A DNA stretch of 24,948 nucleotides, taken from positions 1-24,948 of the forward strand of contig JAJDAE010000165.1 in assembly GCA_029262035.1 (NCBI GenBank), written 5' to 3'. Positions 6,496 to 15,148 of this stretch are shown in pieces (position 1 is the first letter of the stretch; every line of letters starts with the position of its first letter). Source of the stretch: Candidatus Zhuqueibacterota bacterium. GTDB lineage: Bacteria > Zhuqueibacterota > Zhuqueibacteria > Oceanimicrobiales > Oceanimicrobiaceae. Below the pieces are notes generated by a model. That model made no database searches, was not told the origin of the DNA, and saw nothing but the letters and a program-made list of their open reading frames with translations. The translations under genes and the position numbers were made by a program.

Positions 6496-7008
6496 TTAAC
6501 TCGGTGGATATTTTTCAAAAATTTTGAAGATTGCTTCCTGAATTTTTTCCGGATCACCGTCAGGGTGGCCAACGATGCCCTGTGCTGCGCCGCGCCAAAC
6601 CATTTGTTTTATTTCAGGATCGACCACGTCTATAATAATACTGCCTTCCTTGTATCGGCGAACATGGGTACGCCTGCCCCAATAGCCATAGCCGTAACCA
6701 TATCTATTAATATCGACCTTGTTTTGAACGCCCACATGGTAGGCAATAAGAGCATCGGGCTTACCCTCTTTTATGAAACGATAACCTTTGGCCTCCATCT
6801 CAGTTTCTACCGCTATACGAATTCTTTTGTCAAGTAAAGAATTGGGTGGAACTTTGCCCCGTTTTTTCTTTGGGTTCGGCATCCATTTAAAGGTTTGATA
6901 TTTTGTAAAACTGACATCCCGGTCGTAATCTGTACGCACTGAAATTGATGAGCAACTCATTAAGCCGAAACCGAGAAGTAATAAAAGTGTGAAAAAATAC
7001 TGTTTCAT
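6496..7008 (-). CDS. DUF4136-like lipoprotein
   Basis: Start taken at ATG 7008 (MKQYFFTLLLLLGFGLMSCSS, a signal peptide with a lipobox Cys), preceded by GGGAGG. The mature part (VRTDYDRDVSFTKYQTFKW...) resembles the DUF4136 family from memory. Confidence 0.75.
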   Translation of the reverse strand: MKQYFFTLLLLLGFGLMSCSSISVRTDYDRDVSFTKYQTFKWMPNPKKKRGKVPPNSLLDKRIRIAVETEMEAKGYRFIKEGKPDALIAYHVGVQNKVDINRYGYGYGYWGRRTHVRRYKEGSIIIDVVDPEIKQMVWRGAAQGIVGHPDGDPEKIQEAIFKIFEKYPPS

Positions 7009-7167
7009 TTGGAAAGCCTCCCTTACTTTTTTAGTTAACATTTTTAAGAAATTGCAAATGTTATGCCAACACGATTTCTGGTTTTAATGTAAATACAAGA
7101 GGTTCAATTTACAACTAATTTTTCTGTAGAAATAGCAGGCTTGTACGAAATGGGACATAAAGTGAAC

Positions 7168-7199
7168 ATTCCGGGATCTGTAATTTAAGATCCCGGAAT
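7168..7199 (-). terminator. Hairpin downstream of the acylase gene (palindromic, could act on both strands)
   Basis: ATTCCGGGATCT (7168-7179) and AGATCCCGGAAT (7188-7199) form a 12-bp perfect GC-containing stem with an 8-nt loop, 11 nt past the stop codon. The flanks are T-containing but there is no clean U-run. Confidence 0.45.
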
Positions 7200-7210
7200 T
7201 TGGGCAAACT

Positions 7211-9379
7211 CTAGTTTCTTAATTCTTCCCCCGGTTTATATTCTTGCGCTAAATTTGCCCGAACATCTTTTTCATCAAACCAGACCGGCTTAAATTTACG
7301 CCCGGCAAAAAGTTTAGCCTGATCATTATAATGTGGAGAAGATTTATCCTGTGTGGCGGAACCGTACTGATGGATGCTTTGCGAGCGAACTTTGCCATTT
7401 TTATCCCAGGTTGCCATCACAGAGTAGCAGTCACCAAGAAACCCTCGCAGGCGTCCGTCCTTCTTTTTCTCACCGTAAACGGCATGTAATGCATCCGGCC
7501 CGCCGGCCATACCAACATCCAGATCACCTCGGATGAGGCGGTTGACCTGGCGCCAGGGTACATCAATCCTACCAAAGTTTTGCTTTAATTCAGCGGCGGT
7601 TGTAACTAAGGCTTCAAATAAAACAGATGCCTCCGTATCCCATTTTTTTTTCTTGACGAAGGGTTGAAAAGTTAAAATAACCAGGGCAGTTCTGGTGTTT
7701 TCAGCATTAGCTTTAAAGTCCCATGCTTTGAGAATCTCAACTGCTTTTTGGGCGATTTTATCATCTTTCGGAACCGGAACTGTTAAGGCGCGACGAATCA
7801 TTTCAACCACAACTGAATTTTGTGAATAAGTATTGTCAAATTTATATTTATAAAATTCTTCTTCAGAAATAAATGGGTCATTCCCAAAAAGTTCAAGTGC
7901 CCGATGAGCTCGATTGGTCATTCTGTTTTCGATGCCCATGGTCGGAGAATAGTTTGCCTTAATCGGGTTATCATCGCCGGTTGTGGTTCTGAAAGGCGTG
8001 TTATTACAGCTTTGCACAAACCCTGACGCCGGATTAAAAACTTTTGGCAAGTCTTCATACGGTACAAATTCAGACCACAAAGTTTCGGATGTATTGCCGG
8101 GCAAATATTGCCGCCAGTCGTAGCCTTCTGCCCGAACTGGAATTTTGGCATTATAAAGATAAAAAATATTGCCTTGATAATCAGCGTAGACGCAATTGAA
8201 TTTGGGTATGGCCATCATTTTCATGGCGCTTTCCCATTCCTGAAAATTTCGGGCTTTGTTCATACGAAACCATTGTTCAAGGTGGCGTACTTCATTCATG
8301 CCGGGGTAACGCAGGGCATAAGTACCGTGCGGTCGGCGAACCACAGGCCCGTAAACCGACCAAAGCGCCTCACGTTCAAAAGTCCACGATACGGTATCGA
8401 GAAATTTTATTTTGAGCGGCGCCGGCCTTATTTCGAGTTCCATCCATTCGCCATCAAATTTGTATTGGTTTTCATTTTCAGGGTTTATTTCCAGGACATA
8501 GGTATCCACGAGATCGGGCTTGTTCACGGTGTGAACCCAACCCAATTTTTTATTGTGGCCGTTCATTACCACGGGAGAAGTCGGGAATGTCCCGCCGGTA
8601 ATGTCCCAGCCTTGCTGGCTGTGCAAATTAACTTCGTACCATGTGAATGGCCCTTCCCAGGGCTGATGCGAATTTACCGCAAGAAAAGTTTCGCCGTCAG
8701 CGCTGCGTGCCGGGCTAACTGCGAAACCATTTGAGCCATAGTAATCTTCCCACCCCGAGTGTTTAATGTCGTATTTTACAACAGCCTTTTCCGAAACAGT
8801 ACGTCTTCTTTCTTCTTTATAAAGTTCTCTAATTCTTCGATGAATGCCAAAAAAGAACGGCACTTTTAGCACAAAGCCGGCAACTATGTCTTTTGCTGTT
8901 ACAGGCAAAAAACCTGAATAAACCACTTTGGGGTGTAACTTTGCATAATGGTTGATGCCTTCGGCGTAAGCTGCACATACGGCTTTTATATCCGGTGAAA
9001 TGTTTGTATCGAAATTATCGTTGACAACATCCCAAATTCGTAGTAGATGCACCAGGTAATCTACCGGCGCAAATTTCTTTCCAAGAGCGGCTGCTAAATT
9101 TCCCCTGGCGCCTAAAATGGCATTTTGAATCGTCTTAAAATCGTCCTGTGAATGGGCATAACCTAAGCCATAAGAGACATCAGGGTCTGACACACCAAAA
9201 ATATGTGGCACACCCCATGTATCCCTTAAGATTTTAACGTCGTAACTTTCATCCACCAGCGGAGTATTTATTTCGATTGGTTCAAGATCTGGCTGGAAAA
9301 ATGTAAATGCTGCCGCAGAAAGACTCATGAGTGCAATTCCTAGAAGAATACTTTTCCTAAAAGTCTTTTTTTGTTTCAT
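7211..9379 (-). CDS. Penicillin acylase family protein (peptidase S45 Ntn hydrolase; acyl-homoserine-lactone or beta-lactam acylase type), secreted
   Basis: N-terminal signal peptide (MKQKKTFRKSILLGIALMSLSAAAF). Internal GSNGFAV motif typical of the autoprocessing site, where Ser becomes the beta-subunit N-terminal nucleophile. Size of 722 aa fits the family. Confidence 0.88.
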   Translation of the reverse strand: MKQKKTFRKSILLGIALMSLSAAAFTFFQPDLEPIEINTPLVDESYDVKILRDTWGVPHIFGVSDPDVSYGLGYAHSQDDFKTIQNAILGARGNLAAALGKKFAPVDYLVHLLRIWDVVNDNFDTNISPDIKAVCAAYAEGINHYAKLHPKVVYSGFLPVTAKDIVAGFVLKVPFFFGIHRRIRELYKEERRRTVSEKAVVKYDIKHSGWEDYYGSNGFAVSPARSADGETFLAVNSHQPWEGPFTWYEVNLHSQQGWDITGGTFPTSPVVMNGHNKKLGWVHTVNKPDLVDTYVLEINPENENQYKFDGEWMELEIRPAPLKIKFLDTVSWTFEREALWSVYGPVVRRPHGTYALRYPGMNEVRHLEQWFRMNKARNFQEWESAMKMMAIPKFNCVYADYQGNIFYLYNAKIPVRAEGYDWRQYLPGNTSETLWSEFVPYEDLPKVFNPASGFVQSCNNTPFRTTTGDDNPIKANYSPTMGIENRMTNRAHRALELFGNDPFISEEEFYKYKFDNTYSQNSVVVEMIRRALTVPVPKDDKIAQKAVEILKAWDFKANAENTRTALVILTFQPFVKKKKWDTEASVLFEALVTTAAELKQNFGRIDVPWRQVNRLIRGDLDVGMAGGPDALHAVYGEKKKDGRLRGFLGDCYSVMATWDKNGKVRSQSIHQYGSATQDKSSPHYNDQAKLFAGRKFKPVWFDEKDVRANLAQEYKPGEELRN

Positions 9380-9586
9380 TACAACTCCGTAACCTTATGT
9401 TATTCAGTAATTAATGTTTTATATGTGGTGTTTTAAAATGAAAATAATTCCTCACTTTTATACCAGATGTTATATAATTCTATCGGCTGCAAGACGGGTC
9501 GTATTTTTGCAATTAATTTAAATTAACATTGATTAAGTTTTGTGAAACCCAACATTTTATTGTGTTTGTAGTTTTAAACTTTTTAG

Positions 9587-9615
9587 TTGACTATTAGGCT
9601 TGAGTAATCTATATT
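9587..9615 (+). promoter_or_regulatory. Sigma70-like promoter candidate (TTGACT-N17-TATATT)
   Basis: TTGACT at 9587-9592 and TATATT at 9610-9615 with a 17-nt spacer, in the AT-rich spacer upstream of the 9785 ORF. It would imply a ~160-nt leader. AT-rich context makes chance matches likely. Confidence 0.25.
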
Positions 9616-9784
9616 TAATCACACCTAATTCTATATAAATCAACAACTTGGTGTAGTTGTTTTCGAATAGTTAGCAATAATTTGCTCATAAATACACTTT
9701 TGCACATAAATACTGTTTTAACTCGCTTGTTTTGTTGTATAGTCGCAAAACCTCACAACCTCGCATCCTAACCTTGTTGAAGAA

Positions 9785-10045
9785 ATGTCCTCTAAAGCAA
9801 TTATTATCTCAGAAGTTGAATCGACAATAAATAAAAAATATTCGGATTGGGAAATTGGTATTACGAATGAACCTGGAAAGCGAAAAGCACAATTGGGCAA
9901 TCCGTTAAGCTGGCTGCAATGGCAAGCTGCGTCAGAAGATGTCGCATTATTTATTTTGGCTTACTTTCTCGATTCGGGTTTGAAACTTTCAGGGAAAAAA
10001 CCTGAACAAGGGAAACATGTCTTTATTCTTTTGAAGTCCGATTAG
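9785..10045 (+). CDS. Hypothetical small protein (86 aa), orphan
   Basis: ORF with a weak RBS. The segment WEIGITNEPGKRK...ASEDVA...FL..G faintly recalls GIY-YIG/T5orf172-like cores but lacks the GIY part. Convergent with motB, leaving only 13 nt between the stops. Confidence 0.4.
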   Translation: MSSKAIIISEVESTINKKYSDWEIGITNEPGKRKAQLGNPLSWLQWQAASEDVALFILAYFLDSGLKLSGKKPEQGKHVFILLKSD

Positions 10046-10058
10046 CTTATTTTTAAGT

Positions 10059-10703
10059 TTAATTTATCAGTAAACTGACTCTTCGATTTACCGGTAATCC
10101 TCGTCTTGCAGAATTTTCCTTTTCTTTGAGGCGAGTATCTGCATAACCAATGGCCACAAAACGGTTTGATAAGACATTTTTTGTAAGAAGAAACCGAATA
10201 ACGCTGGCTGAACGTGCTGTTGAAAGTTCCCAGTTTGATGGATATAAAGCATTTTGTGATAAAGGCACAGTATCGGTGTGACCTTCGACCTTTACGTTGC
10301 GACTTGCAACATCTGTTGAATTTAAAATATCCGCCAATGCGCCAAAGATTGGCGCCGAATCCTGCTTTAGTTCTGCCTTTCCGGAATCAAATAAAACATT
10401 ATCTTGAAAATTTACCAACAAGCCGTCGGGTGTGAGTTCAACATCGACACTTTCCTGAAGATTATGTTGCTGTACCAGCTCTTTAAATCTTTCCTCTAAA
10501 ACATGCAGAGGCATGGATTGACTCTTATTAAAGTATTCCATGATCATTTCGAACTTAACCTGGTCGACTTGCGAGATAGCAAAAAATAGGACAAAAAAGG
10601 CCAACAATAAGGTGACCATATCACTGTATGCAAGAAGCCAGGGCTGATCTTCTTTTTTATCAAAATTATAGGGGTTGGCGCGGTCCGGGATGTTGAGTTT
10701 CAT
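10059..10703 (-). CDS. motB: MotB-type stator subunit (OmpA-like peptidoglycan-binding C-domain)
   Basis: Single TM with the conserved channel Asp (PWLLAYSDMVTLLLAFFVLF; D28 is codon 10620-10622). C-terminal OmpA-like motifs (NWELSTARSASVIRFL, NRRVSLLI). Start is 2 nt after the motA stop. Confidence 0.85.
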   Translation of the reverse strand: MKLNIPDRANPYNFDKKEDQPWLLAYSDMVTLLLAFFVLFFAISQVDQVKFEMIMEYFNKSQSMPLHVLEERFKELVQQHNLQESVDVELTPDGLLVNFQDNVLFDSGKAELKQDSAPIFGALADILNSTDVASRNVKVEGHTDTVPLSQNALYPSNWELSTARSASVIRFLLTKNVLSNRFVAIGYADTRLKEKENSARRGLPVNRRVSLLIN

Positions 10704-10705
10704 AA

Positions 10706-11524
10706 TTAGGCAAGCGCTTTTTCAGGCGTTCTGGATATCTTACCGTTGGTTTTACTGAGCTTGCTGACTTTTTTACGGCTGCCGGCGCTTAAGTAAGCAC
10801 ATAATTTATCACGAACATAAATATAATTTTTGCCGTCGTAAAGCATGTCCACCGCTTCCAGTTCCATGGTTTCAAGCAACAGGTTGTTTTCTGCACGTTC
10901 TTTAATTTTTTCAGAAATCGGCATAAAAATAATATTCGTCAAAATTAAACCATAAAAGGTTGTGGTTAAAGCAACAGCGAGGCCAATGCCTACTTCTCCC
11001 GGATTGCTTTGCAGGGTGATTAGCATGTTAATTAAGCCGATCAACGTACCGATCATTCCAAAGGCCGGGGCGAACTTTCCCATCGTGGCAAAAAGTTGAT
11101 GCTGCTTCATTTCACGGGCCATTTGCCAGCTTATTTGGTCTTCCAGAATAACATGCGTTTCTTCTTTCGAAAATCCGTTTGCCATCATCTGGACACCATC
11201 TTGAAATATCCATAATTTTTTCATTGGGTTGGTCTCCCGGGACAGGGATTCCATGCCATCGCGTTGAAAGGAGCGGGTGGCGTTTACCATTTGATTAACG
11301 GCTTTAACATAATTATGACTGCCGGATTTAAAGATGACGAAGTAAGATCTAAATGCCCGTAATACTTCCCGGATGGGGTAGGAAACAAAAGTTGAAGCTA
11401 TTGTACCACCGACAACAATTGCAACTCCATTCCAATTCAAGAAAATTTCAATCGGTGCTTTACCGGTGTAAATGCCGTAACCAACTAAAAAGACGCCTAT
11501 TACAAAACCTAAAACAGTTAGCAT
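10706..11524 (-). CDS. motA: MotA/PomA-type stator subunit (4-TM ion channel)
   Basis: 272 aa. Two N-terminal TM helices, a ~100-aa cytoplasmic loop, then PAFGMIGTLIGLI and ALTTTFYGLILTNIIFMPIS (the two conserved Pro-containing helices). The loop has R84 and E92 at the same +8 spacing as E. coli MotA R90/E98. Confidence 0.85.
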   Translation of the reverse strand: MLTVLGFVIGVFLVGYGIYTGKAPIEIFLNWNGVAIVVGGTIASTFVSYPIREVLRAFRSYFVIFKSGSHNYVKAVNQMVNATRSFQRDGMESLSRETNPMKKLWIFQDGVQMMANGFSKEETHVILEDQISWQMAREMKQHQLFATMGKFAPAFGMIGTLIGLINMLITLQSNPGEVGIGLAVALTTTFYGLILTNIIFMPISEKIKERAENNLLLETMELEAVDMLYDGKNYIYVRDKLCAYLSAGSRKKVSKLSKTNGKISRTPEKALA

Positions 11525-11540
11525 TTTTTATCCATGTTTT

Positions 11541-12224
11541 TTAGTTTTCACTGAAGCGGGAAACGAGTTCCTTTACTTCGTCCAAATCGGGGTTAATTTT
11601 CAACGCATTCTCCCAGGCATTGACTGCGGCTTTTGTATCCCCGCTTACGTAGTAAATGGAACCACCCAGCGCATAGGCCGTTGCCGTCTTTTTCTTTTCC
11701 AGAGAATCCTTTAATACATTTAATGCGTCGGTGTATTTGCGTTCGTAAAACATCTTCTGCGCCAAATTAATATCCCGGATGATCTCGTCCGTGAGATCTT
11801 CTGCATCAAGATTTGTCGCTTCCAGGGGGTCGAAATCCTTTTCAGAATCCGGGGATTTTTTACCCAACAGGATTGAGTCGCCTTTTTGTATTTCAAGAAA
11901 ACCTTCGGGACCACGTACCAAATCTAAATTTAAATTAGTCGATTGTGGATCCAGAACCATTTCAACTTCCGTATCATTTTGCTGGAATTTTATTTTCAAA
12001 TATTCATTCTGTTGCTGTGCGGCTTTTTTACTGGGCTTTAAAGTAACAATCCTTTTTTGGTTTGAAGATTTCAATGTGTCTTCTGCTGTATTTTTTTGCA
12101 TCGCCGGGCTATTATCAGAAACAAAGTCGTTTTTTTGAAGCTCTTTTTTTGAACAACCGACAGCCAAAATCAAAAGCGCAAAAATTGTAAAAAGAAAAAT
12201 ATTTGTTTTTAACATGGCGTTCAT
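11541..12224 (-). CDS. TPR-repeat lipoprotein
   Basis: Signal peptide with lipobox (FALLILAVGCSKK). The C-terminal ~70 aa look like TPR repeats (YTDALNVLKDSLEKKKTATAYALGGSIYYVSGDTKAAVNAWENALKINPD). Start is 1 nt after the upstream gene's stop. Confidence 0.75.
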   Translation of the reverse strand: MNAMLKTNIFLFTIFALLILAVGCSKKELQKNDFVSDNSPAMQKNTAEDTLKSSNQKRIVTLKPSKKAAQQQNEYLKIKFQQNDTEVEMVLDPQSTNLNLDLVRGPEGFLEIQKGDSILLGKKSPDSEKDFDPLEATNLDAEDLTDEIIRDINLAQKMFYERKYTDALNVLKDSLEKKKTATAYALGGSIYYVSGDTKAAVNAWENALKINPDLDEVKELVSRFSEN

Positions 12225-12225
12225 C

Positions 12226-13347
12226 CTAAAGTGAGAACTGCAACAAAAATAGCTCGAAATGAGAGCCGGAAACTTTCATTCGGATCGGAGTATCGGTTGA
12301 ACTGACATTGGATGAATTAAACTCCGATCCAAAAATTGTTGACACACCTGCCGAAACCGAAAAACGGCTGCTAAGATCAGATCGCAACCCAAAACCGATT
12401 CCTGTGATATCGGACATCTTGGTGGTAAAATAACGAGTCACGTTTAAATAAATTGAAAGCCAATCAGATGAAACGCTTTTTTTATTCTTTAATAAAGTTG
12501 AATTAAACATGACTTTGAAATTAAATGAAACCGGCAGGAAAGCACCGGCGCCTCCTTCTTTTGCATAAAATGTGTTGTCTGCAAATTCAGTATTGTTGAG
12601 CTTTATGCCCTCGGAAAGAAATGACACGCCTGCACGGAAATCATATCTGAATCGGCTTTGCGGCTCGAGGTATTGATATATCCCAAAGTAGATGGCATAC
12701 TGCACCAGCCGATCATTGAAACCCGAATTGATCAATGAGTCCGCAGATGCATCGATATCCACACTAAAGACTTCAACCCCGGCATTAATACTGCGCATGA
12801 GGGGATTCAAAACTGCCGGCTCAAAACTCTTTTCGTACGCTGTGTAGGAGTGAATCCACAAAATATCGTTGGTGCCGGTTTTGTTCAACCGCAAGTCGAG
12901 GAACAGCGCTTTGCCTTCAACGTAGGTCAAGCTGCCTTCCAGAAATGCGTCAATACGCAGACGTTTGCCGACTTTCCACAGTTCGTCCGGAGATGGCAAT
13001 GCATTCATTATTGAAAAGCTGCTGTCAGTGGATGATATTTTTAACGTGTTCATGTCTGGCAGTGAGACTACTACCGGTGTTTCAAGGCTTTTGAAAATTT
13101 CTTCGAGCCGGCTTTCAAAATGGTCTTTTAAAGGTGCTGGAATATATGCACCCTCAACTGCTAAGTTGTAAACGGCAATGCGTTTCAAACCAGGATTTAT
13201 TTCAGCGAGGTCTGCCGGGATTTGGTTGAAAATGTCTTCCATTAAGTTTAAAATTTTTTCATTGGTGGTGCCGTTTTGAGCAAAACCAAACCCGCAGAAA
13301 CAGAGCAGGTAAACTACGATTAAATTAGTTTTAAGCAGCTTCTTCAT
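12226..13347 (-). CDS. Secreted protein: N-terminal FlgO/CsgG/LpoB-like alpha/beta domain plus a beta-strand-rich C-terminal half (possible outer-membrane barrel)
   Basis: Signal peptide (LLCFCGFGFAQ). RIAVYNLAVEG...DAFLEGSLTYVEGKALFLDLRLNKTGTNDILW matches, by eye, the KIAV-x-F...G-x-V...L-x-L-R-L-x-D pattern of that domain class. The C-half has alternating hydrophobic and aromatic strands. Confidence 0.6.
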   Translation of the reverse strand: MKKLLKTNLIVVYLLCFCGFGFAQNGTTNEKILNLMEDIFNQIPADLAEINPGLKRIAVYNLAVEGAYIPAPLKDHFESRLEEIFKSLETPVVVSLPDMNTLKISSTDSSFSIMNALPSPDELWKVGKRLRIDAFLEGSLTYVEGKALFLDLRLNKTGTNDILWIHSYTAYEKSFEPAVLNPLMRSINAGVEVFSVDIDASADSLINSGFNDRLVQYAIYFGIYQYLEPQSRFRYDFRAGVSFLSEGIKLNNTEFADNTFYAKEGGAGAFLPVSFNFKVMFNSTLLKNKKSVSSDWLSIYLNVTRYFTTKMSDITGIGFGLRSDLSSRFSVSAGVSTIFGSEFNSSNVSSTDTPIRMKVSGSHFELFLLQFSL

Positions 13348-13351
13348 CGTT

Positions 13352-15148
13352 CTACGAAATCCTTTTTAATCTTAGTTTGCGCATCATCGCACGCCTTGCA
13401 TCGGCCACTTCACTTTCCGGAATATTAATATTTACCTCAAGGCTGGCGCGAACCAATTCACCCAGTTTCTCAGGCAGCGAAGTGATGATGCCTTCCACGA
13501 CATTATCATCGAGCGTAATCAACGACTTGGCCAGAGTGTCACGGTCAATCTCCAGAGCTACTTCGCGCATTTTGTCACTGGACTGGTTGATAAGCTGGCC
13601 GAAAGTCATAAATTGCTTGTTCACTTTTCGAGCCAGGAAAACATCTTTGGTTTGGATATACTGAATGGTTTCGTTTTGCTCATCTTCATCCATATAGTCG
13701 AGAACCTTGACTAAGGCGTCGGTACCGTTGGCGCGAACGTAGCGCATTTGCTGTAAATCGTTGGCACGCACCGCCAACTGATTGGCAACATGCTTGTAAA
13801 CATCAGCCGGAATTTTATCGATATTTCCCATGGCCGAGAGAACAATTTTGCGTTCATCGGAGTCGAGCTTGCTAATTAATTTTGCTGTCCGGTTGGTTTT
13901 TAGCTGTGCAAGTACAATTGCCATAACACCGGTTTTAAGCGGCTTGATCAAATGCTGCAACTGTTCATCCGTCATGTGGTTCAGAAATTCCAGCGCGTCT
14001 ACTTCCGAATCGTATTTATCTTTTAAAATCAGCTTGTTGGCCTCGCCATCAAATTGCGTTAAAAGGCGCACGGAGTTTTGTTCAACTTCTTCGGGTGTGA
14101 GCAGGGTAATTCGTTGGTGAATATCGATTGTAAGTTGTTGGCCAAAATGTGGTTCCATCAGGTTGGTTAAGGATCTCGATGCAACAGACAAAACAATTGC
14201 CGTATGAAATAGCCCTTCATCGCCTTGCTCCTCAATCCAGCCGCTAAAAACTTTTGAACTGGCATTGGGCGCTCCGACGATAACATCTATCACCCGGGCC
14301 TTCAGAGCATCGCTGCTTTGTACGATTTCATTTTTCGTTGAGCCGTTTGCCGCTGCACGCGATGGCAGAGTAATGGTTTCATTTGGTGATAAAACTTTTG
14401 CCTTTGAAGCAGCCTCATCGGGGTGCTTCAAAAATTTCGCGATATTCCGCTGACCGGCCCAAAATAAGAGTAGGAGCAGTAAAGCCAATCCTGCTGCGAA
14501 AACATAGGGCATCCAATCGACTTTAGATTTTTGAGGCTCGTTAAAAGCTTCAGGTTTTGCCAGAGATTCATTTAAAGTCGCTGCAACCTCTTCCTCATCT
14601 TCCGGGAAAAAATCAGCTTTTTCAGGAAAGTCCAATCCTTCAATACGAACAGCATCGCCACGGCTGGGTTCGAGGTTGGCGGTTAAATTCACAAAGCGGC
14701 GAATAAAAGACCAATCCTTTTGTACCAAACTTTTGTCAACGAGAACATCCACACGGATGCGATTTATCTCGAATTTTTTCTTGTTAATTTGGCTACGTAA
14801 GTTATCTTGCGGCGCTTCTTTTGCTTCCGCTAAAGATTCCGGTAAATAGGGCAGTCCGGGCAGATTCGTTAAATCTTTGCTAAGCAGTGCGTCCGGCAGT
14901 TCGGGCAGAATTGTTTTCGGCGAAACCTTTTGTAATTTCACCCGGGTATTAACTACAAATTTGTTTTCGGGGTAGTATAACAGAAGAGCATTTTGAAGAT
15001 TCCAGGTCAGGTTGGCTTCCATACTTTTTTCAATTTCGCCCAGTGGTTTTTCTGCGCGAAAGGATTGTATGGCAAGTACCGGTCTAATCCCGAAGATTAT
15101 AACTGCGCTAAATAATAGCGTCTTGAAGCAATTCATAGAAAGTTTCAT
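13352..15148 (-). CDS. Membrane protein with a FliF-like periplasmic segment fused through a TM helix to a full FliG-like (N, M, C) cytoplasmic region
   Basis: aa 9-26 form a hydrophobic signal or TM1. aa 128-175 (INRIRVDVLVDKSLVQKDWSFIRRFVNLTANLEPSRGDAVRIEGLDF) resemble the FliF C-terminal ring motif ending in RGD-x-V-x-V-x-x-x-F. TM is at aa 213-231 (MPYVFAAGLALLLLLLFWA). aa ~283-598 align by eye along the whole of Thermotoga/E. coli FliG. Example segments are FLNHMTDEQLQHLIK..VMAIVLAQL, NGTDALVKVLDYMDEDEQN and REVALEIDRDTLAKSLITLDDNVVEGIITSLPEKLGELVRASLE. Confidence 0.8.
   Translation of the reverse strand: MKLSMNCFKTLLFSAVIIFGIRPVLAIQSFRAEKPLGEIEKSMEANLTWNLQNALLLYYPENKFVVNTRVKLQKVSPKTILPELPDALLSKDLTNLPGLPYLPESLAEAKEAPQDNLRSQINKKKFEINRIRVDVLVDKSLVQKDWSFIRRFVNLTANLEPSRGDAVRIEGLDFPEKADFFPEDEEEVAATLNESLAKPEAFNEPQKSKVDWMPYVFAAGLALLLLLLFWAGQRNIAKFLKHPDEAASKAKVLSPNETITLPSRAAANGSTKNEIVQSSDALKARVIDVIVGAPNASSKVFSGWIEEQGDEGLFHTAIVLSVASRSLTNLMEPHFGQQLTIDIHQRITLLTPEEVEQNSVRLLTQFDGEANKLILKDKYDSEVDALEFLNHMTDEQLQHLIKPLKTGVMAIVLAQLKTNRTAKLISKLDSDERKIVLSAMGNIDKIPADVYKHVANQLAVRANDLQQMRYVRANGTDALVKVLDYMDEDEQNETIQYIQTKDVFLARKVNKQFMTFGQLINQSSDKMREVALEIDRDTLAKSLITLDDNVVEGIITSLPEKLGELVRASLEVNINIPESEVADARRAMMRKLRLKRIS

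Follow-up and report, generated by a model that had tools for sequence, protein, structure and literature searches.

Can the torque-generating parts of the flagellar motor exist as a machine of their own, outside the flagellum? This question is raised by a 24,948-nucleotide (nt) stretch of DNA from a Candidatus Zhuqueibacterota bacterium (GenBank assembly GCA_029262035.1, contig JAJDAE010000165.1; hereafter the window), in which an open reading frame (ORF) of 598 amino acids (aa) joins FliF-like and FliG-like regions in one chain (13352..15148, minus strand, as are all features of this gene and its operon given below). To our knowledge, no machine other than the flagellum has been found to combine FliG with MotAB. 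In FliF, two transmembrane (TM) helices flank about 400 periplasmic residues with three ring-building motifs (RBM1, RBM2, and RBM3), the last of which carries a β-collar of about 110 aa, and the ring is a ~33-34-mer. We found that the fusion gene opens a five-gene operon (10059-15148) in the order fusion, 373-aa secreted protein, TPR lipoprotein, MotA, and MotB, with intergenic gaps of 4, 1, 16, and 2 nt. We lean toward the view that these five genes encode a self-contained rotor-stator machine made from flagellar-motor parts, lacking a switch and delivering its output to the cell envelope, in which the fusion would form a ring and the ring would rotate.

A natural fusion of RBM3, a membrane helix, and FliG

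An earlier note on this gene, made from the DNA alone, had described a natural FliF-FliG-like fusion in a single chain. This description of the sequence is correct and goes far beyond what chance would give: Pfam, profile comparisons, AlphaFold, and Foldseek together place an RBM3, then a TM helix, and then FliG N, M, and C domains in one polypeptide. Pfam recognized FliG_M (PF14841; aa 395-465, 35.3 bits) and FliG_C (PF01706; aa 498-593, 47.7 bits) above their cut-offs, and a partial YscJ_FliF_C slightly under its cut-off. Kyte-Doolittle hydropathy yielded exactly two hydrophobic segments, at aa 3-28 and aa 213-231. The AlphaFold2 monomer model of the full-length fusion, with an alignment of 47 sequences as input, had a mean predicted local distance difference test (pLDDT) score of 75; it showed a helix at 2-25, another at 213-240, and a wholly helical region at 272-597. 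Confidence was low for an acidic linker at 179-209 and for a second linker at approximately 241-272.

The membrane topology proposed in the note was largely upheld. The two hydrophobic segments, the TM segment at 213-231, the approximately 185 periplasmic residues, and the linker were all recovered, and aa 213-240 (14429..14512), where the hydropathy peak and the AlphaFold helix coincide, form what is probably the sole membrane-spanning helix, equivalent to TM2 of FliF. The first segment (aa 1-28; 15065..15148), by contrast, is more likely to be a cleaved signal peptide than a retained FliF-type TM1, judging from its '...A-Q' terminus, which is kept in nearly all of the 47 homolog N-termini that we compared. 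With a signal peptide at this position, the mature fusion would cross the membrane once. The start codon may lie at 15134-15136 rather than at 15146-15148, as the close homolog P0002 begins at the second Met (MNCFK..., window aa 5). Following the TM helix, aa 241-271 (14336..14428) make up a disordered and poorly conserved cytoplasmic linker (pLDDT 32-38), variable in length and sequence across the alignment, that stands in for the non-covalent docking of the FliF C-terminus on FliG-N.

The periplasmic region is a single FliF-type RBM3

Within the periplasmic part, the note had recognized one FliF-like element, aa 128-175 (nt 14624-14767), ending in SRGDAVRIEGLDF, which we located at aa 162-174. 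The coordinates agree and the resemblance to FliF is real, but the element is larger than proposed: aa 36-172 (14633..15043) are one complete FliF-type RBM3 split by an insertion. In the AlphaFold model, this domain consists of an α-helix (36-56), a β-strand (64-74), a low-confidence stretch (75-117), a helix (118-124), a β-strand (126-138), an α-helix (143-157), and a β-strand (166-172). When aa 27-212 were modeled alone, the core reached a pLDDT of 91-96, and the top 18 PDB matches of this model in Foldseek (E = 6e-6 to 2e-3, probability 1.0) were without exception S-ring/RBM3 structures of FliF, taken from Salmonella or Vibrio, so that an unrelated fold, which the note had named as a possible refutation, is not what this region adopts. 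The next match was the type III secretion system ring protein in 2y9j, and those beyond it were noise, including an OsmC/Ohr fold (E > 0.01) that we rejected as a candidate.

Sequence profiles led to the same domain. A profile of the RBM3 domain found FliF as its only match among PDB sequences, colinear in both halves, and retrieved genuine FliF proteins, verified as carrying PF01514 and PF08345, from 1.8 billion representative proteins at E = 6e-10 to 1e-7. On the fusion itself, YscJ_FliF_C (PF08345) covered aa 118-174 with profile positions 87-147 of 147 and scored 22.6 bits, just under the cut-off of 23.8; the same model matched 43 of the 47 homologs, with a best E of 7e-8. The domain aligns with E. 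coli FliF residues 350-431, with KRGDSLNVVNSPF opposite SRGDAVRIEGLDFP, and ends in the RGD...V...FP motif that is common to FliF.

RBM1 and RBM2 are missing, as no PF01514 match was found on the fusion at E ≤ 1 (Pfam), and the insertion at the collar position measures about 50 aa against about 110 in FliF. The idea of a much simpler ring was, therefore, right in substance. The insertion (aa 75-125; 14774..14926), which was delimited by alignments, is proline-rich and occupies the site of the β-collar of FliF RBM3, between β1 and β2. Its sequence is unlike that of the FliF collar and its pLDDT in the monomer model is low (40-50). This same segment bears the most conserved residues of the family, L96-P97-G98-L99-P100, and P103 is likewise invariant. 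P97 and G98 are retained even among homologs that share only 16-24% identity, and an LPGxP-like motif is present in 93 of the 107 cluster representatives with RBM3-FliG architecture that are described below.

The cytoplasmic region has FliG architecture without the FliM-binding motif

The cytoplasmic part (aa 272-598; 13355..14335) comprises FliG-like N, M, and C domains, as seen in a profile match to FliG in the PDB, in Foldseek, and in an alignment with FliG of E. coli K-12. The family profile matched the M and C domains of Thermotoga FliG at E = 2e-23, and residues 22-317 of Salmonella FliG matched profile positions 297-598. With the full model as query, Foldseek returned full-length FliG structures (8wiw, 3hjl, and 8umd) over approximately 310 columns at E = 1e-8 to 1e-7. 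The N-M-C order of FliG is thus found in the two Pfam domains, in the Salmonella alignment, and in the structural matches. The note had also allowed that aa 283-598 might lie closer to MgtE N-domains or other ARM-like repeats. We found the opposite: the best FliG match had E = 1e-8, whereas the cytoplasmic domain of MgtE appeared at rank 47 with E = 0.6, no MgtE chain was among the PDB sequence matches of the family profile at E ≤ 1, and Pfam detected neither a CBS pair nor an MgtE TM domain on the fusion. An MgtE-like or generic ARM-repeat identity was rejected on the PDB profile and Foldseek results. Two lesser Pfam matches could mislead automated annotation. A FliG_N match (PF14842) at aa 409-464 falls on an ARM repeat of the M domain and not on the true N domain (aa ~283-380), and an MgtE_N match (PF03448) at aa 382-440 is the known cross-match between the homologous repeats of FliG and MgtE_N.

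Although FliG by architecture, this region departs from FliG on several of the features by which the family is recognized. The EHPQR motif that binds FliM is gone: E125-H126-P127-Q128 of E. coli (Ec) FliG is replaced by L404-K405-T406-G407 and R160 by A439, in 45-46 of the 47 homologs. The equivalent of the torque helix, LPEKLGELVRASLEV (aa 558-572; 13433..13477), was placed by FliG alignment and by pairing with MotA across 22 loci. It retains K561 (Ec R281), E564 (Ec D284), and R567 (Ec R287), while Ec D288 and D289 have become A568 and S569 (A in 45/47 and S in 46/47 homologs). Among Ec K264, R281, D288, D289, and R297, only R281 has a retained equivalent, K561, with K264 changed to I/V and R297 to P/S. 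Against the curated FliG model TIGR00207, the fusion scored 66 bits, where the cut-off is 226.7.

The operon encodes a flagellar-type stator

The last two genes of the operon encode the stator. The first, a 272-aa MotA/PomA-like A subunit of flagellar type (10706..11524; PF01618), matched flagellar MotA in the PDB over its full length (6ysf, E = 1e-34) and PomA (6e-25), as against 6e-3 for ExbB. Its nearest NCBIfam models, MotP/PomA, were under cut-off, the best MotA-type model giving 153 bits against a cut-off of 394, and the TolQ and ExbB models reached only E ~1e-4. The channel prolines Ec P173 and P222 are invariant in the family (window P153 and P202). The second, a 214-aa MotB-type B subunit (10059..10703), carries MotB_plug (PF13677, 64.7 bits) and an OmpA-like domain that binds peptidoglycan (PF00691), and matched MotB in 6ysf_A at E = 3e-30. 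Its channel aspartate, D28 in YSDMVTLL, is kept in 17 of 17 orthologs examined, and its best score among the curated MotB, MotS, and MotD models was 155 bits against a cut-off of 283. Stators have been divided into flagellar ion transporters and generic ion transporters (PMC12505986). Under this classification, the MotA and MotB of the operon are a flagellar-type stator, and not one of the generic or the condensed Exb/Tol type.

The E. coli partners of MotA R90 and E98 are FliG D289 and R281, respectively (as quoted in PMC12505986). The MotA of the operon has Q87-R88 in the corresponding region, and its residue at the Ec E98 position is variable. We compared paired fusion and MotA sequences from 22 loci. 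In the KSB1/Calditrichaeota clade, the fusion has K-E-R-A-S at positions 561, 564, 567, 568, and 569, MotA has R/K88 in 12 of 15 loci, and the E98 position is never acidic. In a distant clade (L003, L023, L026, L027, and L028), the fusion carries R at 561 and D/E at 568, and its residue 564 is non-acidic; the MotA of this clade combines Q/K at 88 with an E98 equivalent that is E. E564 thus occurs with R88 in one clade, and the R281 and D/E288 equivalents occur with E98 in the other, as would fit a charge interface that changed jointly on both partners. We regard this as suggestive only because the comparison involves essentially two clades and few independent events.

The module is conserved across phyla and lies apart from flagellar genes

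Orthologs with the same fused architecture, for which the note had proposed a search, are widespread. We collected 47 full-length homologs of 585-640 aa, and the RBM3-domain profile retrieved 370 representatives at 50% identity. An RBM3 N-terminal to FliG is carried by 107 of the 150 best representatives, with a median length of 614 aa, and the remainder of these 150 were short fragments, LysM-RBM3 proteins, and true FliF. A second profile search, of a word-indexed protein database, added almost no further members. In public annotations, members of the family appear as 'hypothetical', as 'FliG C-terminal domain-containing protein', or under the name 'flagellar motor switch protein FliG'.

The five-gene order was constant in every fetched locus with enough downstream sequence, save two, L022 and L029. 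It was found in KSB1, in Calditrichaceae/Calditrichaeota (41% identity), in two Elusimicrobiota metagenome-assembled genomes (MAGs; 23-26% identity), and in further metagenomic lineages. The two exceptions retain the fusion, MotA, and MotB, and differ in their accessory genes. The 807-aa fusion of L022 (5844-11928) has an N-terminal LysM; after it come MotA, a MotB of the OmpA type in which no plug was matched, an AraC-type response regulator, and a histidine kinase. In L029, the gene for P0078 (8001-9599) lies just upstream of another RBM3-FliG fusion with MotAB. This 532-aa lipoprotein combines a C-terminal TPR with three 'RGD..V..FP' repeats of RBM3b-like type (aa 163-214, 272-349, and 384-444) and may be a stacked periplasmic ring partner. 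In one of the Elusimicrobiota modules (L003:12148-13155), MotB is a 335-aa protein with an extra C-terminal TPR region, a region that the clade of the window has on a separate lipoprotein.

The surroundings of the operon are those of an ordinary chromosome (DnaE, ABC transporters, a DEAD-box helicase, and others), and no other flagellar gene was found in the window. We searched 30 module loci (423 kb) by tblastn, using as queries MotA, MotB, and 28 proteins of the E. coli flagellar and chemotaxis systems. Sensitivity for weakly conserved proteins is limited in this search, which gave nothing beyond the module except a match of FliI to the F-ATPase of L003 and a single segment with marginal similarity to FlgD. 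No fliM, fliN, flhA, fliP, rod, or hook genes were found in the 30 loci by tblastn or in the Pfam-annotated loci.

The host lineages have a mixed relation to flagella. Caldithrix abyssi has a full flagellar gene cluster (PMC5317091), and within KSB1, flagellar genes are present in clades II and IV and mostly missing from clades I and III (PMC9012183). The idea that the host phyla are uniformly non-flagellated was rejected, as some members have flagella or flagellins. In a published KEGG-based table (PMC9012183, Table S7), two clade III genomes, GCA_002085355.1 and GCA_014729735.1, have one fliG, one motA, and one motB, and zero fliF, fliM, fliN, fliC, fliD, fliE, flgC, flgK, flgL, flhA, flhB, and fliH; most flagellated clade IV genomes have two fliG, two motA, and two to three motB for one fliF and one fliM. 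These counts are the footprint expected of a flagellum-independent module, a link that is indirect as it is made by counts and not by accession.

Two accessory envelope proteins and the neighborhood of the operon

Between the fusion and the stator lie genes for two exported proteins. In the 373-aa secreted protein (12226..13347), a signal peptide precedes an N-terminal domain and a C-terminal half of alternating hydrophobicity, and the family of this protein ends in a motif like that of outer-membrane proteins (consensus ...LLQYTF). It had no significant match in Pfam, PDB, or NCBIfam. By these features, it may be an outer-membrane β-barrel or another outer-membrane partner. Every complete canonical five-gene locus that we examined has an ortholog at this place in the gene order, and the variants L022 and L029 have none. 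For the N-terminal domain, the signal of an LpoB/CsgG/FlgO type is weak: FlgO matched one of 16 orthologs (E = 0.016), and hhalign comparisons with LpoB- and CsgG-family neighbors gave P = 0.02-0.05 with the motif in the right register. Genes for CsgG-/LpoB-family lipoproteins lie just upstream of the module in one Calditrichaeota locus (L001:8249-9175) and one Elusimicrobiota locus (L003:2615-3220 and 6860-7336); the window contains no equivalent.

The 227-aa TPR lipoprotein (11541..12224) has a lipobox, ...LAVGC, and Pfam TPR matches slightly under cut-off, and its position is conserved. Most close orthologs examined have the lipobox cysteine, and distant ones have a plain signal peptide. 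No TonB- or TolA-like elongated coupling protein was detected in the operon by Pfam.

A scan for promoters and terminators gave counts at chance level. The 680 nt downstream of motB (9380-10058) are low in G+C (0.35 in the bin 9001-10000) and lack an ORF of 100 aa, the only one noted being of 86 aa on the plus strand (9785-10045). A DUF4136 lipoprotein gene lies a few kilobases downstream of the module in the window (6496-7041) and directly downstream of it in a KSB1 relative (L030:12324-12836), which is either a conserved neighborhood or a coincidence.

A proposed rotor-stator machine and its alternatives

How might these five products work together? We propose that the fusion is exported and anchored through its single TM helix and that its periplasmic RBM3 domains oligomerize into an S-ring-like ring, as RBM3 of FliF does. 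Each subunit would then place one FliG-like N-M-C unit beneath the membrane. Because the RBM3-TM-FliG chain is continuous, the MS-ring and FliG-ring equivalents would have a built-in 1:1 stoichiometry. Stator units of the MotA5B2 type, with MotB held on peptidoglycan and ions passing via the conserved aspartate, would push on the FliG-like C-terminal helix, so that the ring would be turned or at least worked on. Since EHPQR is absent, no FliM/FliN switch would be present, and the device should be unidirectional. RBM1 and RBM2 are missing and axial genes are absent, which would leave no room for an export gate or rod; the output would be an envelope task and not a flagellar filament, presumably reached via the TPR lipoprotein and the 373-aa protein. 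For coupling the ring to the envelope, the evident candidates are these two proteins together with the LPGLP segment, which is invariant. In this proposal we infer ring formation, rotation, a direct contact between the FliG-like domain and MotA, and independence from the flagellum.

Several observations weigh against this proposal. Structural support comes from AlphaFold monomers only, with a predicted template modeling score of 0.32 for the full-length fusion and low confidence in the collar-position insertion. Both the barrel fold and the outer-membrane location of the 373-aa protein are conjectural. In the clade of the window, neither of the canonical charge pairs (MotA R90 with FliG D289 and MotA E98 with FliG R281) is retained, and the co-variation at this interface is essentially between two clades, with few independent events. 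In some relatives, the putative rotor bears a LysM domain, which binds peptidoglycan, at its N-terminus; this is hard to square with free rotation, at least in the L022 branch. The E. coli queries used in tblastn are weakly sensitive to poorly conserved flagellar proteins, and relatives of the host are flagellated (Caldithrix abyssi, PMC5317091; KSB1 clades II and IV, PMC9012183). Lastly, the KSB1 table is tied to the module by gene counts only, and the module proteins P0022 and P0020 come from other assemblies.

There is a substantial chance that the module is a distinct machine. A more specific form of the rotor-stator proposal, which we hold tentatively, is that of a free-standing, switchless, ion-driven rotary motor unrelated to swimming, in which an RBM3-TM-FliG ring would be spun by its own MotAB. 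The TPR lipoprotein, together with an outer-membrane protein, would couple this ring to some task in the envelope, for instance surface translocation, secretion, or remodeling. A more radical sub-reading of this form is that the family descends from, or keeps the design of, a rotor-stator core that predates the union with the type III export apparatus.

The strongest competing explanation replaces rotation with a static device. Here, the RBM3-FliG ring would be a fixed docking and activation platform for MotAB in a trans-envelope energizer like Tol-Pal or ExbBD-TonB, and the flow of ions would be turned into a force or a conformational change that acts on the TPR lipoprotein and on the outer-membrane partner. 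Such a device would serve envelope maintenance, secretion, or uptake, with no continuous rotation. In tolQR-tolA-tolB-pal-cpoB, the genes of an ion motor are grouped with those of periplasmic and outer-membrane partners, and the present operon, with its ion motor, periplasmic TPR lipoprotein, and probable outer-membrane protein, follows the same theme. The LysM variants would tether such a ring to peptidoglycan, and the core is constant while the accessory genes vary. However, the stator is of the flagellar type, with a plug and a full cytoplasmic domain, and not of the condensed Exb/Tol type; rotation in flagella arises from just this geometry, in which MotB is anchored to peptidoglycan and pushes on a FliG ring; and the operon has no elongated coupler of the TonB or TolA kind. 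We judge a non-rotating energizer unlikely and retain it as a serious rival because of the LysM variants and the altered charge pairs.

Alternatively, the module could be an accessory part of the ordinary flagellum of its host, serving as an extra ring or stator scaffold with specialized stators, similar to the periplasmic scaffolds of complex motors. Every homologous part stems from the flagellar motor, TPR proteins scaffold the stators of Campylobacter-type motors (PMC11870540), and one ortholog of the 373-aa protein gave the weak FlgO-like signal described above. Flagellated relatives of the host keep this explanation alive, and two copies each of fliG and motA are frequent among flagellated KSB1 genomes. 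Against it, the module is unlinked to other flagellar genes in 30 loci from several phyla, and two KSB1 genomes apparently have fliG, motA, and motB with no other flagellar gene. Moreover, the fusion, lacking EHPQR, should be unable to bind FliM; it lacks the RBM1 and RBM2 that hold the export gate; and a second membrane-anchored FliG ring would compete with the MS-ring. We consider a role as a flagellar accessory improbable.

A decaying, functionless remnant of a lost flagellum would account for the subset of flagellar components that is left and for the low scores against curated FliG, MotA, and MotB models, but this explanation is effectively refuted by conservation: the ORFs are intact and tightly spaced, motifs are invariant across 16-24% identity, synteny is kept across phyla, the architecture is constant over 370 diverged clusters, and the MotB aspartate and MotA prolines are conserved. 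Equally remote is a Zorya-type anti-phage system with a MotAB-like pair, as the match of MotB to ZorB models in PADLOC (E = 5e-20) reflects generic MotB homology, whereas MotA had no ZorA match and, being 272 aa long and matching flagellar MotA from end to end, has no tail of the long ZorA kind, the other three proteins had no PADLOC match at all, no ZorC/D-like genes are present, and the flanks are housekeeping genes and not a defense island; on the PADLOC result, Zorya and other defense systems were rejected.

Implications

If the rotor-stator proposal is correct, the module would be the simplest natural rotor-stator unit, consisting of five genes and one rotor polypeptide with a built-in 1:1 ratio of FliF to FliG. 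Of the flagellar machinery, the operon retains the torque-generating pair alone; export gate, rod, hook, filament, and switch are all absent, and the simplicity of the rotor is attractive for structural work and for single-molecule measurements of torque. Stators of 5:2 stoichiometry serve the Tol, Ton, Gld, and Zorya systems; a flagellar rotor would, like them, be reusable for other purposes. It would also follow that an RBM3 ring with FliG and MotAB is viable and selectable without type III secretion, which bears on the origin of the flagellar motor, whether the module is ancestral or derived being a matter for phylogeny. Should the more radical sub-reading hold, the family would provide a living model for that origin.

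There is also a practical consequence. Misannotation of these proteins as FliG and MotA/MotB is systematic and inflates motility predictions for KSB1, Calditrichaeota, and Elusimicrobiota MAGs, and the inferences on KSB1 motility that are in print probably count this module as flagellar.

Comparison with known systems

Among open-access papers and bioRxiv, we found no description of a natural FliF-FliG fusion or of a non-flagellar FliG-MotAB module, and a prior description elsewhere is possible. What appears to be new here is a natural RBM3-FliG fusion with a dedicated MotAB operon, since the FliF-FliG fusions on record in the searchable open-access literature are all engineered ones.

Of the envelope energizers, Tol-Pal and ExbBD-TonB resemble the module in having an inner-membrane ion motor of the 5:2 type encoded with periplasmic TPR and outer-membrane partners. 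They differ in having TolQ or ExbB with a condensed cytoplasmic part and an elongated TolA or TonB coupler, and in having no FliG-like or ring-building protein. The scaffolds of complex flagellar motors, namely the PflA/PflB TPR spokes and the FlgO/FlgP/FlgT H-ring, share with the operon a TPR protein and an outer-membrane-associated protein encoded with stator genes, whereas the operon proteins have no significant sequence match to them, the similarity to FlgO being one weak match.

The stator itself is close to MotAB and PomAB, with a full-length MotA that has a large cytoplasmic domain and a MotB with plug, channel aspartate, and OmpA-like domain. It differs from them in scoring far under the equivalog cut-offs, in its altered equivalents of Ec R90 and E98, and in the location of its genes, which stand beside their own rotor gene and not in a motility or chemotaxis locus.

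On the rotor side, the fusion shares with FliG the all-helical, ARM-like N-M-C architecture and a torque helix in which K561, E564, and R567 correspond to Ec R281, D284, and R287. Unlike FliG, it is covalently anchored in the membrane, lacks EHPQR, has A and S in place of D288 and D289, and scores 66 against 226.7 bits with TIGR00207. With FliF it shares an RBM3 with an insertion between β1 and β2, the RGD...V...F motif, and then a TM helix and a cytoplasmic link to FliG. It differs from FliF in having no RBM1 or RBM2, hence no seat for the export gate and no M-ring, probably one TM helix where FliF has two, and an insertion of about 50 aa with LPGLP where FliF has a β-collar of about 110 aa. 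FliF and FliG are, moreover, encoded in flagellar clusters (fliE-fliFGHIJ...), whereas the fusion lies outside flagellar operons in the window and in the 30 loci.

The closest counterparts are the engineered FliF-FliG fusions of Salmonella and Vibrio, which assemble rings (PMC6079021, PMC10941966, and PMC11481574). These constructs likewise hold MS-ring and FliG parts in one polypeptide, in the identical order. They were made in the laboratory from full-length FliF, with three RBMs and two TM helices, and operate inside a complete flagellum, whereas the fusion described here is natural, has a single RBM, and occurs in no flagellar context.

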